A stretch of DNA of 5,013 nt from a virus (Duplodnaviria > Heunggongvirae > Uroviricota > Caudoviricetes): IMG/VR virus record IMGVR_UViG_2534682088_000014; one strand, 5' to 3'. This document shows, piece after piece, positions 1-5,013 of this stretch. Position 1 is the first letter of the stretch. Each line of letters starts with the position of its first letter. Under the pieces are notes generated by a model. It did not search any database. It was not told the DNA's origin and saw only the letters and a list, made by a program, of their open reading frames with translations. The translations under genes were made by a program, and so were the position numbers.

Positions 1-2399
1 AGGACCGACCGTCGGATAAGGTGTGGACCTATAACCGCAGTAATGTGGTGATGCCGGATGATGGTGCGCCGTTCCGCTACAGCTTCAGCGCCCTGAAAGA
101 CCGCCATAATGCTGTTGAGGTGAACTGGATTGACCCGGATAACGGCTGGGAGACGGCGACAGAGCTTGTGGAGGACACGCAGGCCATTGCCCGTTACGGT
201 CGTAACGTCACGAAGATGGATGCCTTTGGCTGTACCAGCCGGGGGCAGGCACACCGCGCCGGGCTGTGGCTGATTAAAACGGAACTGCTGGAGACGCAGA
301 CCGTGGATTTCAGCGTGGGTGCTGAAGGGCTTCGCCATGTACCGGGCGATGTCATTGAAATCTGCGATGATGACTATGCCGGTATCAGCACCGGTGGTCG
401 CGTGCTGGCGGTGAACAGCCAGACCCGGACGCTGACGCTCGACCGTGAAATCACGCTGCCATCCTCCGGTACCACGCTGATAAGCCTGGTTGACGGTCAG
501 GGTAATCCGGTCAGCGTGGAGGTCCAGTCCGTCACCGACGGCGTGAAGGTGAAAGTGAGCCGTGTTCCTGACGGCGTTGCAGAATACAGCGTGTGGGGGC
601 TGAAGCTGCCGACGCTGCGCCAGCGCCTGTTCCGCTGCGTGAGTATCCGTGAGAACGATGACGGCACGTATGCCATCACCGCCGTGCAGCATGTACCGGA
701 GAAAGAAGCCATCGTGGATAACGGGGCGCACTTTGACGGTGACCAGAGCGGCACGGTGAATGGTGTCACGCCGCCAGCAGTGCAGCACCTGACCGCCGAA
801 GTCACTGCAGACAGCGGGGAATATCAGGTGCTGGCGCGATGGGACACACCGAAGGTGGTGAAGGGCGTGAGCTTCCTGCTCCGTCTGACCGTAACAGCGG
901 ACGACGGCAGTGAGCGACTGGTCAGCACGGCCCGGACGACGGAAACCACATACCGCTTCACGCAACTGGCGCTGGGGAACTACAGGCTGACAGTCCGGGC
1001 GGTAAATGCCCGGGGGCAGCAGGGCGATCCGGCGTCGGTATCGTTCCGGATTGCCGCACCGGCAGCACCGTCGAGGATTGAGCTGACGCCGGGCTATTTT
1101 CAGATAACCGCCACGCCGCATCTTGCCGTTTATGACCCGACGGTACAGTTTGAGTTCTGGTTCTCGGAAAAGCGGATTGCGGATATCAGGCAGATTGAAA
1201 CCGCAGCCCGCTATCTTGGCTCGGCGCTGTACTGGATAGCTGCCAGTATCAATATCAAACCGGGCCATGATTATTATTTTTATATCCGCAGTGTGAATAC
1301 TGTTGGCAAATCGGCATTCGTGGAGGCTGTCGGTCGGGCGAGCGATGATGCGGAAGGTTACCTGGATTTTTTCAAAGGAGAAATCGGGAAAACACATCTG
1401 GCCCAGGAGTTGTGGACGCAGATTGATAACGGTCAGCTTGCGCCGGACCTGGCTGAAATCAGGACGTCCATTACGAATGTCAGCAATGAAATCACGCAGA
1501 CCGTCAATAAAAAAATGGAAGACCAGAGTGCGGCAATCCAGCAGATACAGAAAGTTCAGGTTGATACAAATAATAACCTGAACAGCATGTGGGCCGTGAA
1601 ACTGCAGCAGATGAAGGACGGACGCCTTTATATTGCGGGTATCGGTGCCGGTATTGAGAACGCCCCTGACGGCATGCAGAGTCAGGTGCTTCTGGCTGCT
1701 GACCGGATTGCGATGATTAATCCTGCGAATGGCAACACAAAGCCGATGTTTGTTGGTCAGGGCGATCAGATATTCATGAACGACGTGTTCCTGAAACGCC
1801 TGACGGCTCCGACCATTACCAGCGGCGGTAATCCTCCGGCATTTTCCCTGACACCGGACGGGCGGCTGACGGTGAAAAATGCCGATATCAGCGGTAACGT
1901 GAATGCGAACTCCGGGACGCTCAACAACGTCACGATTAACGAGAACTGTCGGGTTCTGGGAAAATTGTCCGCGAACCAGATTGAAGGCGATCTCGTTAAA
2001 ACAGTGGGCAAAGCTTTCCCCCGGGACTCCCGTGCACCGGAGCGGTGGCCATCAGGAACCATTACCGTCAGGGTTTATGACGATCAGCCGTTTGACCGGC
2101 AGATTGTTATTCCGGCGGTGGCATTCAGCGGCGCTAAACATGAGAAAGAGCATACTGATATTTACTCCTCATGCCGTCTGATAGTGCGGAAAAACGGTGC
2201 TGAAATTTATAACCGTACCGCGCTGGATAATACGCTGATTTACAGTGGTGTTATTGATATGCCTGCCGGTCACGGTCACATGACACTGGAGTTTTCGGTG
2301 TCAGCATGGCTGGTAAATAACTGGTATCCCACAGCAAGTATCAGCGATTTGCTGGTTGTGGTGATGAAGAAAGCCACTGCAGGCATCACGATTAGCTGA
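1..2399 (+). CDS. J: Tail-tip host specificity protein J (central and C-terminal part; 5' end lies upstream of the window)
   Basis: Frame 3 is open from the window edge (codons 3..20 = D-R-P-S-D-K, no stop) through the track ORF 21..2399 to TGA at 2397-2399, so the GTG at 21 is not the real start. The translation carries motifs I recognise from lambda gpJ (e.g. [73 protein letters not shown] near the C-terminus). Gene order J-lom-stf matches lambda. Confidence 0.9.
770..1350 (+). other. Two tandem fibronectin type III-like domains within J (approximate boundaries)
   Basis: Two consecutive ~95-aa segments ([11 protein letters not shown]...SVSFRIAAP and [14 protein letters not shown]...[13 protein letters not shown]) each end in a Y-x-[FI]-x-[VI]-R-[AS]-VN motif typical of the FN3 fold. 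Assignment rests on recollection that lambda gpJ contains FN3 domains. Confidence 0.45.
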
Positions 2400-2417: not shown

Positions 2418-2443
2418 GGGCGCCAGAAATGACGCCTTTTTTA
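2418..2443 (+). terminator. Weak hairpin plus T-tract immediately after the J stop (possible partial terminator/attenuator)
   Basis: GGGCG (2418-2422) can pair with CGCCT (2433-2437, one G:U) around a 10-nt loop, followed by TTTTTT (2437-2442). The stem is short, so this is tentative. Confidence 0.25.
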
Positions 2444-2466: not shown

Positions 2467-3067
2467 ATGCGTAAACTTTATGCCGCCATTTTGTCCGCAG
2501 CCATTTGTCTGGCCGTATCCGGTGCGCCTGCATGGGCGTCTGAACATCAGTCCACGCTGAGCGCGGGGTATCTTCATGCCCGGACGAACGTTCCCGGCAG
2601 TGATGATCTGAACGGGATTAACGTGAAATACCGTTATGAGTTTACGGACGCGCTGGGGCTAATTACGTCCTTCAGTTATGCCAATGCTGAGGATGCGCCA
2701 GATTACCCGTTACAGCGATACCCGCTGGCATGAAGATTCCGTTCGTAACCGCTGGTTCAGCGTGATGGCGGGGCCGTCTGTGCGCGTGAATGAATGGTTC
2801 AGCGCGTATGCGATGGCGGGTGTGGCTTACAGCCGTGTGTCGACTTTCTCCGGGGATTATCTCCGCGTAACTGACAACAAGGGGAAAACGCACGATGTGC
2901 TGACCGGAAGTGATGACGGTCGCCACAGCAACACGTCTCTGGCGTGGGGGGCTGGCGTGCAGTTTAACCCGACCGAATCCGTGACCATTGACCTTGCTTA
3001 TGAAGGTTCCGGTAGTGGCGACTGGCGATCGGATGCATTTATTGTTGGTATCGGATACCGTTTCTGA
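2467..3067 (+). pseudogene. lom: lom-like outer-membrane protein gene (Ail/Lom/OmpX/PagC family), interrupted by a frameshift
   Basis: The frame-1 ORF 2467..2733 encodes a signal peptide (MRKLYAAILSAAICLAVSGAPAWA|SEHQ) and the N-terminal part, matching my recollection of lambda Lom. Homology then continues in frame 2 (track ORF 2678..3067: ...TRYSDTRWHEDSVRNRWFSVMAGPSVRVNEW...GYRF, ending in the aromatic residue typical of OM beta-barrels). The switch lies in the 16 nt at 2683-2698, which is not a multiple of 3; frame 1 stops at 2731-2733. Position directly after J matches lambda. Confidence 0.75.
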
Positions 3068-3171
3068 CAACAGACGCCGATTTATCTTCTGTAAATATTG
3101 TTATGATACGCAGGTTCATCCACCTTATGGGGTGAACTGCGTTTGAGGAAACGTAAAGTTACACTGTCCTG

Positions 3172-3207
3172 AAGCCCGTGGCGTCACTGCTGCGGGCTTT
3201 TTTTATT
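3172..3207 (+). terminator. Rho-independent terminator downstream of lom
   Basis: AAGCCCG (3172-3178) pairs with CGGGCUU (3193-3199), with further inner pairs (UG/GC with GC/UG) closing a hexaloop GUCACU (3183-3188). A run of 7 T (3198-3204) follows. It lies 105 nt after the lom stop and 12 nt before the stf ATG. Confidence 0.6.
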
Positions 3208-3213
3208 GGTGGA
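3208..3213 (+). promoter_or_regulatory. Ribosome-binding site for stf
   Basis: GGTGGA sits 5 nt upstream of the ATG at 3219. Confidence 0.45.
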
Positions 3214-3218
3214 AAAGT

Positions 3219-5013
3219 ATGACAGTAAAAATTTCTGGCGTGCTTAAAGATGGCACAGGAAAACCAGTACAGAACTGCACCATTGTGCTGAAGGCCAGAC
3301 GAACCAGCAGCACGGTGGTGGTGAACACGGTGGCCTCTGAAAATCCGGATGAAGCCGGACGTTACAGCATGGATGTTGAGCATGGTCAGTACAGCGTCAC
3401 CCTGCTGGTTGAAGGTTTTCCGCCTTCACATGCCGGGACCATTACCGTCTATGAAGGTTCCAGACCAGGTACGCTGAATGATTTTCTCGGTGCCATGACG
3501 GAGGATGATGTCCGACCGGAGGCACTGCGCCGCTTTGAGCAGATGGTGGAAGAAGTGTCACGTAACGCCTCCGCGGTTGCACAGAATACGGCAGCCGCGA
3601 AAAAATCAGCCAGCGATGCCAGTGCATCAGCCAGCGAGGCGGTAACTCATGCAACCGATGCTGCAGCCTCAGCACGTGCCGCCAGCACGTCAGCCGGACA
3701 GGCCGCGTCGTCGGCTCAGTCAGCGTCTTCCAGCGCAGGAACGGCATCAACAAAGGCCAGTGAAGCATCGAAAAGTGCTGCTGCTGCAGAGTCCTCAAAA
3801 AGCGCGGCAGCTACCAGTGCCGCTGCGGCGAAAACGTCAGAAACGAATGCGGCAGCGTCACAACAATCAGCAGCCACTTCTGCATCCGCCGCGACCACGA
3901 AGGCGTCAGAAGCAGCCACCTCAGCCCGGGATGCGGCGGCCTCAAAAGAGGCAGCGAAATCATCAGAAACGAACGCATCCTCGAGCGCCAGTAGCGCAGC
4001 TTCCTCGGCAACGGCGGCAGGAAATTCCGCGAAGGCGGCAAAAACGTCAGAGACGAACGCCAGGTCTTCTGAAACGGCAGCGGGACAGAGCGCCTCGGCT
4101 GCGGCAGGCTCAAAAACAGCGGCTGCGTCGTCTGCCAGTGCAGCGTCAACAAGTGCCGGGCAGGCCTCAGCCAGTGCCACCGCCGCCGGAAAATCGGCAG
4201 AAAGCGCCGCATCGTCTGCTTCAACAGCCACAACGAAGGCTGGCGAAGCCACTGAACAGGCCAGCGCAGCAGCGAGGTCTGCTTCCGCAGCGAAGACATC
4301 CGAAACGAACGCGAAAGCGTCGGAAACCAGCGCAGAATCCTCAAAAACGGCTGCCGCATCGTCCGCCAGTTCGGCGGCGTCATCGGCATCATCTGCGTCT
4401 GCTTCAAAAGATGAGGCGACCAGACAGGCGTCAGCAGCGAAGGGTAGCGCCACGACGGCATCCACGAAGGCGACAGAGGCAGCTGGCAGTGCGACGGCAG
4501 CAGCTCAGAGCAAAAGTACGGCGGAATCTGCAGCAACGCGCGCTGAGACAGCGGCAAAACGGGCAGAGGATATTGCATCCGCCGTGGCGCTTGAGGATGC
4601 GAGCACGACGAAAAAGGGGATAGTACAGCTCAGCAGTGCGACTAACAGCACTTCCGAGTCACTGGCGGCAACGCCAAAAGCCGTTAAGGCCGCGTATGAG
4701 CTGGCTAACGGGAAATACACCGCACAGGATGCAACGACAGCACAGAAAGGGATAGTTCAGCTTAGCAACGCGACCAACAGCACATCTGAAATGCTGGCGG
4801 CAACGCCAAAGTCGGTAAAGGCAGCCTATGACCTTGCTAACGGGAAATATACTGCTCAGGACGCTACGACAGCACAAAAAGGAATTGTCCAGCTCAGTAG
4901 TGCAACCAACAGCACATCTGAAATGCTGGCGGCAACGCCAAAGTCGGTAAAGGCAGCCTATGACCTTGCTAACGGGAAATATACTGCTCAGGACGCTACG
5001 ACAGCACAAAAAG
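3219..5013 (+). CDS. stf: Side tail fibre protein Stf (N-terminal ~598 aa; 3' end lies beyond the window)
   Basis: Not in the ORF track because there is no in-window stop. Hand translation of frame 3 from ATG 3219 gives MTVKISGVLKDGTGKPVQNCTIVLKARRTSSTVVVNTVASENPDEAGRYSMDVEHGQYSVTLLVEGFPPSHAGTITVYEGSRPGTLNDFL..., which matches my recollection of the lambda Stf N-terminus. It continues without a stop through a long Ala/Ser/Thr-rich region and the tail-fibre repeat motif KGIVQLSSATNSTSE.LAATPK to 5013. Confidence 0.9.
   Translation, partial: MTVKISGVLKDGTGKPVQNCTIVLKARRTSSTVVVNTVASENPDEAGRYSMDVEHGQYSVTLLVEGFPPSHAGTITVYEGSRPGTLNDFLGAMTEDDVRPEALRRFEQMVEEVSRNASAVAQNTAAAKKSASDASASASEAVTHATDAAASARAASTSAGQAASSAQSASSSAGTASTKASEASKSAAAAESSKSAAATSAAAAKTSETNAAASQQSAATSASAATTKASEAATSARDAAASKEAAKSSETNASSSASSAASSATAAGNSAKAAKTSETNARSSETAAGQSASAAAGSKTAAASSASAASTSAGQASASATAAGKSAESAASSASTATTKAGEATEQASAAARSASAAKTSETNAKASETSAESSKTAAASSASSAASSASSASASKDEATRQASAAKGSATTASTKATEAAGSATAAAQSKSTAESAATRAETAAKRAEDIASAVALEDASTTKKGIVQLSSATNSTSESLAATPKAVKAAYELANGKYTAQDATTAQKGIVQLSNATNSTSEMLAATPKSVKAAYDLANGKYTAQDATTAQKGIVQLSSATNSTSEMLAATPKSVKAAYDLANGKYTAQDATTAQK
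3663..4586 (+). repeat. Degenerate 42-bp (14-codon) periodic array inside stf, about 22 units
   Basis: When the Stf translation is cut every 14 residues from 3663, units align: AASARAASTSAGQA, ASSAQSASSSAGTA, STKASEASKSAAAA, ESSKSAAATSAAAA, KTSETNAAASQQSA, ATSASAATTKASEA ... ASSASAASTSAGQA ... ESSKTAAASSASSA ... STKATEAAGSATAA. Ala is nearly invariant at position 14. The K[TS]SETNA motif recurs at 3831, 3957, 4041 and 4293, with offsets of 126, 84 and 252 nt, all multiples of 42. Confidence 0.7.
4614..5013 (+). repeat. 132-bp (44-codon) in-frame tandem repeats in stf: three full copies plus the start of a fourth
   Basis: Copies start at 4614, 4746 and 4878; a fourth starts at 5010 and is cut by the window. 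Each encodes KGIVQLS[SN]ATNSTSE[SM]LAATPK[AS]VKAAY[ED]LANGKYTAQDATTAQ. Copies 2 and 3 are identical over 109 nt (4773-4881 versus 4905-5013); copy 1 is roughly 80% identical. The motif matches the conserved phage tail fibre repeat that lambda Stf carries once. Confidence 0.9.

Follow-up and report, generated by a model that had tools for sequence, protein, structure and literature searches.

A canonical intrinsic terminator, by sequence and predicted fold, at the lom-stf junction of a lambdoid late operon

In phage lambda, Luk and Szybalski (1983) reportedly described tandem terminators, t'J1-4, downstream of J, and the hairpin between lambda lom and stf is probably one of these t'J terminators. 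Antitermination of lambdoid late transcripts by Q is established, and tR', an intrinsic terminator directly after the late promoter PR', lies within the Q-antiterminated unit; the short PR' transcripts that end at tR' (lambda 6S RNA, StxS) can become an Hfq-bound regulator (PMC7547250). Accessory genes bounded by a terminator define the moron pattern, and in the moron cassettes described (HK97 gene 15; lambda lom and bor) a factor-independent terminator lies downstream of the accessory gene (PMC3594210). A short terminator-bearing unit has also been described in a tail-operon spacer of prophage PP6 of enteropathogenic Escherichia coli (EPEC) E2348/69: this unit encodes the small RNA PasB, is widespread in E. 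coli, and was verified by Northern blot and RIL-seq (PMC8550237).

Here we analyse a 5,013-nt stretch of viral DNA ('the window') that extends from the 3' part of J, through lom, into stf, and that has its best whole-window match in UTI89-like E. coli (97.7%), with E. albertii NBRC 107761 at 95.9%. The features of the window are as follows.

1-2399, plus strand: 3' part of the tail-tip host-specificity gene J (ORF 21-2399, stop codon 2397-2399).
2419-2442, plus strand: J-terminator hairpin, GGCGCC-AGAAAT-GACGCC followed by T6, with a C-A mismatch that weakens the stem here.
2467-3067, plus strand: lom, an Ail/Lom outer-membrane beta-barrel gene by the annotation of relatives, frameshifted (stop codon 3065-3067).
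3068-3218, plus strand: lom-stf spacer, 151 nt.
3068-3098, plus strand: 5' end of the long spacer, a more variable part (variation in 8 of 31 columns across 51 distinct long-spacer loci).
3099-3107, plus strand: extended -10-like box, TGTTATGAT, candidate promoter by motif match.
3108-3142, plus strand: hairpin 1, a predicted fold with an inner stem that pairs 3114/3115-3121 with 3130-3137 and with loop ACCUUAUG.
3140-3170, plus strand: predicted small hairpin (3140-3144 with 3149-3153) and A/U-rich unpaired stretch, invariant among long-spacer loci.
3171-3204, plus strand: predicted intrinsic terminator, the feature under study (stem 3174-3182/3189-3197, loop 3183-3188, T7 3198-3204).
3205-3218, plus strand: stf leader, with ribosome-binding site GGTGGA at 3208-3213 (11 of 14 columns vary among the 51 distinct loci).
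3219-5013, plus strand: stf, side tail fibre gene (ATG 3219-3221; 598 codons without a stop, open at the window end).

Near-identical J loci carry the annotation 'phage attachment tail tip protein J', and the N-terminal part of Stf shares 85% identity with lambda-type Stf (orf-401) loci. When aligned with intact lom genes of 600 nt, lom of the window shows a 1-nt insertion near 2696-2712, and this frameshift breaks it into ORFs 2467-2733 and 2678-3067.

An earlier note on this DNA had described a GC-rich hairpin with a seven-T tract between lom and stf on the coding strand, and sequence, folding and a pattern scan all bear out that description. The core stem pairs GCCCGUGGC (3174-3182) with GCUGCGGGC (3189-3197) around the loop GUCACU and can be extended by GAA/UUU to 3171-3200, giving a GC-rich stem of 9-12 bp; the seven T that follow (3198-3204) are uninterrupted and are succeeded by ATT. 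The hairpin by itself has a predicted folding energy of -16.4 kcal/mol, and RNAfold of 3165-3210, a segment for which a strongly negative energy had been anticipated, yields -20.5 kcal/mol vs. -11.4 +/- 2.5 kcal/mol for shuffled sequences (z = -3.59; 0 of 200 shuffles as good). In a pattern scan of the window, the lom-stf hairpin is the strongest terminator-like site by far (13 pairs, 7 of them G-C); the total of such sites in the window, 6, shows no excess over the 5.2 +/- 2.1 expected by chance. A plus-strand site at 1095, within J, found by a strict detector, was dismissed for its weak TATTTT. On the minus strand no T-run follows the lom-stf hairpin, and the terminator is therefore unidirectional. 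The hairpin lies 104 nt past the lom stop codon, with 14 nt between the end of T7 and the stf ATG (3219); the earlier placement of the terminator just upstream of stf thus holds, with the correction that the quoted distance of 12 nt is 3219 minus 3207, and that the wider T-tract, to 3207, ends 11 nt from the ATG. The ribosome-binding site takes up most of this gap, and so, as had been proposed, a promoter could not fit between the terminator and stf. We conclude that, by sequence and predicted fold, 3171-3204 is a canonical intrinsic terminator, from which we infer termination in vivo.

Within the late operon the hairpin lies past J, at the site held in lambda by the lom/orf-401 (stf) hairpin (NC_001416, approximately 19612-19640), which likewise stands directly before the stf ribosome-binding site and has the same flanking genes. 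The two hairpins share the basal stem GCCCG/CGGGC and a run of six or seven T, but differ in upper stem and loop (CCGG-AA-CCGG in lambda, UGGC-GUCACU-GCUG in the window), and the lambda spacer, 64 nt vs. 151 nt, is without the 5' module (extended -10 box plus hairpin 1) that is present in the window. Given this lambda counterpart, the terminator is a genuine but unremarkable feature. The site also resembles tR' in being a predicted intrinsic terminator within a Q-antiterminated late transcription unit; however, tR' immediately follows PR' and ends an experimentally mapped RNA, whereas the lom-stf site lies approximately 20 kb further down the operon and would end a putative one.

Comparison across relatives shows that position is conserved while sequence is not. 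A strict detector that requires a T-run and a hairpin at least as stable as -13.5 kcal/mol (background 0.48 per kb) finds such a pair no more than 35 nt from the stf start in 28 of 29 distinct relatives, the sole exception having an insertion sequence inside the T-run. At least four versions of the hairpin occur before stf (window type, lambda, Stx type and Rac-like, plus that of FHI_NMBU_11), and every version in all relatives has a T-run of T6 to T8. The hairpin sequence differs between spacer types, the hairpin itself is present in each type examined, and the spacer types diverge immediately past the T-run. Changes within window-type hairpins fall in the loop or convert G-U to A-U (one such pair change in FHI_NMBU_11). 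Among long-spacer loci the stem does not vary and has 0 compensatory pairs, and covariation consequently gives the terminator no support. These observations directly support the existence of a stable hairpin with canonical features and the conservation of its position across divergent hairpin sequences.

The reading that we favour, with a probability of roughly 0.7, is that 3171-3204 is a Rho-independent terminator of a lambdoid late operon that would close the lom cassette, stop polymerase unmodified by Q, and be passed by Q-modified polymerase. Under this proposal, unmodified polymerase would halt and release at the U-run whatever its origin (a lom promoter, the candidate promoter at 3099-3107 or stray initiation); because of that release, stf and the genes downstream of it would stay untranscribed in the prophage. 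During lytic growth, Q-modified polymerase from PR' would pass the terminator, and stf would be translated off the read-through RNA by means of the ribosome-binding site just past the U-run. Override by Q, which draws on established lambdoid biology since Q, qut and PR' all lie outside the window, and the identity of the transcripts ended are what we infer beyond termination itself. As a terminator, the element would be one more insulating hairpin at the junctions and accessory cassettes of lambdoid late operons, and of little importance. One observation counted against a plain terminator is the invariance of 3141-3170, which lies upstream of the hairpin and is superfluous for one.

The J-lom junction and loci without lom place the terminator in the wider operon. 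The J-terminator hairpin has a predicted energy of -6.3 kcal/mol here vs. -11.4 to -13.5 kcal/mol in 18 other distinct junctions, and its relatives exhibit two independent compensatory changes (GGCACC/GGTGCC and GGCGTC/GACGCC), which argues that this kind of hairpin is under structural selection in the operon. In two lom-less loci, L009 and L014, the gene order is J, hairpin, stf, and a hairpin of J-terminator type with its T-run is found 17 nt before stf. Since these loci retain a pre-stf hairpin without lom, the pre-stf terminator is not specifically that of lom; the occurrence of the same design at J-lom and, in lom-less phages, at J-stf suggests a general insulating feature of the operon's gene junctions. 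Comparison of loci with and without lom delimits an insert comprising ribosome-binding site, lom and terminator, such that the lom cassette appears to have carried in its own copy of the terminator.

The insert begins approximately 21 nt before the lom ATG, directly past the J-terminator T-run (the distance from T6 to the ATG is approximately 24 nt, approximately 21 of these in the insert), and a search of the plus strand upstream of lom found no sigma-70-like site; for these two reasons no lysogenic lom promoter is evident. A weak TATAAC lies at 2403-2408, upstream of the J hairpin. Like a moron, lom is present or absent between the same neighbours (absent in L009 and L014) and has its own downstream terminator (the 3171-3204 hairpin). 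Unlike the published morons, the lom insert has no visible promoter, and its GC content is the same as that of its flanks (0.52-0.58 for lom, 0.47-0.57 for J, 0.51-0.63 for stf). The presence of a pre-stf terminator in lom-less relatives, taken together with a lom insert that has no visible promoter, calls into question the simple view in which the lom cassette brings both a promoter and a terminator of its own.

The interpretation in the earlier note, that the terminator ends lysogenic lom transcription and is read through in the late transcript, corresponds to the textbook moron model combined with Q antitermination. The statement that lom is expressed in lysogens is indeed found in the literature (PMC7067206), but lom was undetected in an array study of lambda, which described the lom promoter as little known (PMC2147009), and lom of EPEC E2348/69 PP6 is almost silent in one RNA-seq dataset (baseMean 2.0). 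With PP6 lom near zero and no lom promoter found, the proposed role is left without a demonstrated lysogenic lom transcript. The proposal is thus partly supported: a canonical coding-strand terminator at the lambda position survives, while the case for a lom-specific role is weakened. The lom frameshift in the window also counts against the lysogenic-lom reading.

A second reading, which we consider rather unlikely, is that the terminator serves chiefly as the 3' end of an unannotated small-RNA gene. The gene, itself a doubtful candidate, would be independent and take up the 5' two-thirds of the spacer, with an extended -10 element at 3099-3107, a start near 3113-3115, a length of approximately 90 nt and an end at the 3171-3204 hairpin; its RNA would run from a stem-loop at the 5' end, through a small hairpin and a conserved stretch free of pairing, to the terminator and its U7 tail. 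Such a gene would be compatible with the hairpin also stopping lom transcripts. The TTGTTA at 3098-3103, previously listed for a weak and unconvincing -35/-10 candidate, fits the extended -10 box TGTTATGAT better than it fits a -35 element. The motif TGNTATRAT has a single match in the window, vs. 0.14 expected, and the box is at the identical position in every long-spacer locus. TG-n-TATAAT/TATGAT is retained in four lineages while n varies (T, G, C), the three other lineages having the variants TGTTATAAT, TGGTATAAT and TGCTATAAT; the window-type box, TATGAT, is however weaker than consensus.

Conservation downstream of the box favours a small RNA as well. Across the 51 distinct loci, 0 of 30 columns vary in 3141-3170, vs. 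diversities of 0.061 for lom, 0.14 for stf and 0.035 for lom second codon positions; in the region 3140-3170, some changes are seen solely in an 85% divergent copy (L132). Variation in hairpin 1 falls mainly in the loop or converts U-G to U-A; 93% of cells are paired, and neither hairpin 1 nor the other spacer stems have compensatory pairs. The 5' module is confined to the lom-stf-spacer context (1970 places) and can be separated from the terminator, which FHI_NMBU_11 has on its own. PasB provides a precedent: the same prophages encode this small RNA within their tail operon, approximately 4.3 kb upstream of the lom-stf spacer and on the opposite strand.

Against a small RNA, EPEC E2348/69, whose PP6 lom-stf spacer is identical to that of the window, has no entry for the element in the complete RIL-seq table S5, from the same EPEC data that verified PasB. 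The corresponding position in Sakai has no Hfq-CRAC peak in the tables for enterohaemorrhagic E. coli, from a screen that left out sites within 100 bp of a gene. No Rfam 15 family reaches threshold (best 22.8 bits vs. a gathering score of 46): a search of the whole window at E <= 1 gave no match in the spacer, and a search of the spacer by itself gave only sub-threshold matches to generic small-RNA or leader families. Complementarity of the invariant stretch to Sp9 transcripts within 30 kb is no better than for shuffled controls, and a search for spacer sequence strings gave no match in the papers covered. With support from neither the Hfq datasets nor Rfam, the small RNA stays a lead, and it is as a lead that the putative promoter-to-terminator unit of approximately 90 nt in the long spacer is new here. 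Very common and hardly variable, the long spacer has a conserved promoter-like box: approximately 30% of complete E. coli genomes carry the 151-nt form, among them O157:H7 Sakai (Sp9), EPEC E2348/69 (PP6) and UTI89. Should the box drive a small RNA, pathogenic E. coli would have a common prophage-borne regulator that has been overlooked.

Four described RNAs were considered for this site and ruled out by location: 24B_1 (encoded on the other strand of the 428-bp lom-vb_24B_43 spacer in phage Phi24B; none of the five phage records matching the spacer is of Phi24B), PasB (I-J spacer, opposite strand), HnrS (EcOnc10-12; approximately 19 kb away in Sp9) and EsrF (adjoining glnA).

Stable GC-rich hairpins at gene junctions shield upstream RNA from 3' exonucleases, and such hairpins are found here at both J-lom and lom-stf; the hairpin could accordingly serve mainly to stabilise the 3' end of the J-lom message within the late transcript, or to block its processing, and not as a termination site. 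We judge this improbable, as a long uninterrupted U-run, the mark of a terminator and unnecessary for a stabiliser, is kept in every version of the hairpin.

Less probable still is control of stf translation by the structure. The hairpin abuts the ribosome-binding site, and in the minimum-free-energy fold of the whole spacer the terminator hairpin is enclosed by a predicted CGCCGAU/AUUGGUG helix (3075-3081/3205-3211) that would overlap GGTGG and so partly cover that site. However, two of the pairs in the helix are G-U, its arms both lie in the most variable parts of the spacer, and it is missing from the short-spacer types, which share the same terminator-to-ATG geometry.

A chance inverted repeat without function, the reading suggested by a window total of terminator-like sites equal to the shuffle expectation, is scarcely credible for a hairpin whose 46-nt segment has no shuffle that folds equally well and that, with its T-run, is held at this position in 28 of 29 distinct contexts in spite of differing sequences.

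The window holds the J-lom-stf segment of a lambda-like prophage, with the following features (gene assignments follow the annotation of near-identical RefSeq/GenBank loci):

to 2399: J, annotated as tail-tip protein J
2419-2442: hairpin and T6 of the J-lom spacer
2467-3067: lom, annotated as Ail/Lom outer-membrane protein
3068-3218: lom-stf spacer, 151 nt
3219 to window end: stf, open, 598 codons, annotated as prophage tail fibre

Among complete E. coli genomes, none is an exact match to the entire window; the closest, at 97.7%, are UTI89-like strains.

The results confirm the lom-stf hairpin, which almost certainly acts as an intrinsic terminator. Positions 3174-3182 pair with positions 3189-3197 (GCCCGUGGC / GCUGCGGGC) around the loop GUCACU, the stem can be extended by GAA/UUU to 3171-3200, and a T7 run occupies 3198-3204. 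The 46-nt hairpin segment folds at -20.5 kcal/mol vs. -11.4 +/- 2.5 kcal/mol for shuffled versions (z = -3.6; 0 of 200 shuffles fold as well as the native segment). In a pattern scan no other terminator-like site in the window comes near the hairpin in strength, and a stricter detector returns only two plus-strand sites in the window, this hairpin and a weak one inside J. The GC-rich hairpin with a 7-T tract described between lom and stf in the earlier note, and the strongly negative folding energy expected of it, are thus borne out. So is the claim that a promoter for stf cannot fit past the terminator, since a GGTGGA ribosome-binding site occupies the gap between the terminator and the stf ATG. 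A predicted long-range helix (3075-3081 with 3205-3211) brackets the entire spacer and shares bases with the stf ribosome-binding site; this helix is weak, with two G-U pairs, and both of its arms lie in variable parts of the spacer.

The terminator is an ordinary one with a direct counterpart in lambda. Among 116 loci gathered through a search with the Stf N-terminal domain, together with records from BLAST, a hairpin of -13.5 kcal/mol or lower with a T-run at most 35 nt from the stf ATG is present in 28 of 29 distinct upstream contexts, vs. a background density of 0.48 such sites per kb in the same loci. The lambda lom-stf spacer is 64 nt, in contrast to 151 nt in the window, and ends in AGCCCGCCGG-AA-CCGGTGGGCT and a T6 run, 11 nt from the ATG of orf-401 (stf). 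The stem base GCCCG/CGGGC is common to several versions of the hairpin (window type, lambda, Stx-phage type, Rac-like and FHI_NMBU_11), and FHI_NMBU_11 carries a window-like hairpin in a short, 74-nt spacer. Spacer types diverge in sequence immediately past the T-run, making the terminator a module boundary. In the sole exception among the 29 contexts, locus L046 (IMGVR_UViG_2563366803_000005), an IS200-like transposase gene lies within the terminator T-run; the site is at approximately 775-1480 of the locus, the original hairpin remains upstream, and a hairpin of the insert itself adjoins the stf leader. Separately, stf 85% identical to the query occurs on low-coverage contigs (L010-L013, L015-L018, L020, L022-L028 and L030) assigned to unrelated genera, including Pseudomonas, Shewanella, Oceanobacillus and Kitasatospora; three are about 48.4-48.5 kb, and 14 loci, the lambda reference L001 included, share the lambda upstream sequence exactly. 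Such contigs probably represent contamination of assemblies with lambda DNA.

A terminator is present just before stf with or without lom. Two loci (Escherichia ruysiae and Escherichia sp. E1V33) lack lom; past the J stop codon they carry a different hairpin (GGGC[A/G]CC-AGAAAT-GG[T/C]GCC) and a T6 run, with the stf ATG 17 nt beyond. Phages that carry lom have the same hairpin between J and lom, where its T-run starts 30 nt before the lom ATG; the inserted unit therefore comprises a ribosome-binding site, lom and a terminator, and lies between the T-run of the J terminator and the stf leader. In 19 distinct junctions compared, the J hairpin has undergone two independent compensatory double changes, and one G-U intermediate is also seen. 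In lambda, Luk and Szybalski (1983) reportedly located a tandem series of terminators, t'J1-4, past the end of J. The window copy is the only one of the 19 with a mismatch (C-A; -6.3 vs. -11.4 to -13.5 kcal/mol), and the window lom, split into two ORFs (2467-2733 and 2678-3067) by a 1-nt insertion in a short divergent patch (2695-2712), is either a pseudogene or the product of a sequencing error; both defects suggest that this copy is decaying or that the sequence contains errors.

Anatomy and established lambdoid biology together make it most likely that unmodified RNA polymerase would stop at the U-run, that Q-modified polymerase from PR' would pass the terminator during lytic growth (general mechanism summarised in PMC7547250), and that stf would then be translated from the read-through RNA. 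The scheme agrees with how morons have been described, namely as units that possess a promoter and a terminator of their own and can thereby be expressed from repressed prophages (PMC3594210), and the mechanism proposed in the earlier note is, to this extent, the standard model and plausible. The lom-specific half of that proposal, that the terminator ends a lysogenic lom transcript, is not supported by the checks made. Expression of lom in lysogens has been cited (PMC7067206), but lom went undetected in a lambda array study, which describes its promoter as poorly known (PMC2147009); a search in and near the lom insert found no promoter; RNA-seq baseMeans in EPEC E2348/69, the prophage PP6 of which has a spacer identical to that of the window, are 2 for lom, 7 for stf and 15 for J; and the lom-less loci keep a terminator. 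Nor does the GC content of lom differ from that of its flanks.

The long spacer itself is widespread, occurring in 1640 of 5426 complete E. coli genomes (1563 records at >=99% identity), with copies identical to the window in O157:H7 Sakai Sp9 (NC_002695 1798916-1799066) and in PP6. Its 5' end, about 95 nt, is a separable add-on, since FHI_NMBU_11 has a terminator of the window type and lacks this part, and is never found outside the spacer context (1970 places vs. 1973 for the whole spacer). Across 51 distinct long-spacer loci, the thirty bases at 3141-3170 show zero variation, whereas 66-81% of columns are variable in the flanking genes (nucleotide diversity 0.061 for lom, 0.035 at second codon positions, and 0.14 for stf). 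This invariance is beyond what a plain terminator explains; the near-zero diversity of the hairpin itself is a biased value, because long-spacer loci were picked by a pattern on the hairpin.

One explanation, which we consider unlikely, is that the spacer encodes a small RNA that would start near 3113-3115, extend about 90 nt and end at the lom-stf terminator. Besides the invariant stretch, an extended -10-like box at 3099-3107 favours it: the box reads TGTTATGAT in the window and TGTTATAAT, TGGTATAAT and TGCTATAAT in three other lineages (TG-n-TATAAT in these three), with TG and hexamer constant and the free position variable, as expected of an extended -10 promoter. The motif is unique in the window (0.14 expected) and identical in position in all long-spacer loci; it takes in part of what had been read as a weak -35 element at 3098-3103. 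The putative RNA would open with a 5' stem-loop and continue through a small hairpin and a conserved, unpaired stretch to the terminator. However, its three helices, 96.5% paired in nine distinct variants, show zero compensatory change; Rfam returns no family at threshold; the spacer has no entry in the EPEC RIL-seq table of interacting RNAs; EHEC Hfq-CRAC tables, from a screen that dropped sites <100 bp from genes, hold nothing at the spacer; and complementarity of the invariant stretch to Sp9 transcripts is no better than that of shuffled versions. The literature searched contains no quotation of the spacer sequence strings. In view of the negative tests, we retain a small-RNA gene in the long spacer as a lead, and an improbable one, rather than as a finding.

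The known prophage small RNAs 24B_1, PasB and HnrS were rejected as the spacer RNA, each being located elsewhere. PasB, a validated small RNA, is encoded between I and J in this prophage type (locus L121, 4262-4344, minus strand; NC_011601 1466261-1466343); in EPEC it is approximately 4.3 kb upstream of the corresponding lom-stf spacer, a position just outside the window. IsrG hits are reported to be common near PasB in these prophages (2026 preprint); in the window, a sub-threshold Rfam isrG match (3803-3893, minus strand; 30.6 bits vs. a gathering score of 100) falls within the Ala/Ser-rich part of stf. Further downstream in stf, at 4612-5013, a 132-nt (44-aa) unit occurs three times in tandem, 87% alike, in an array that continues past the window end.
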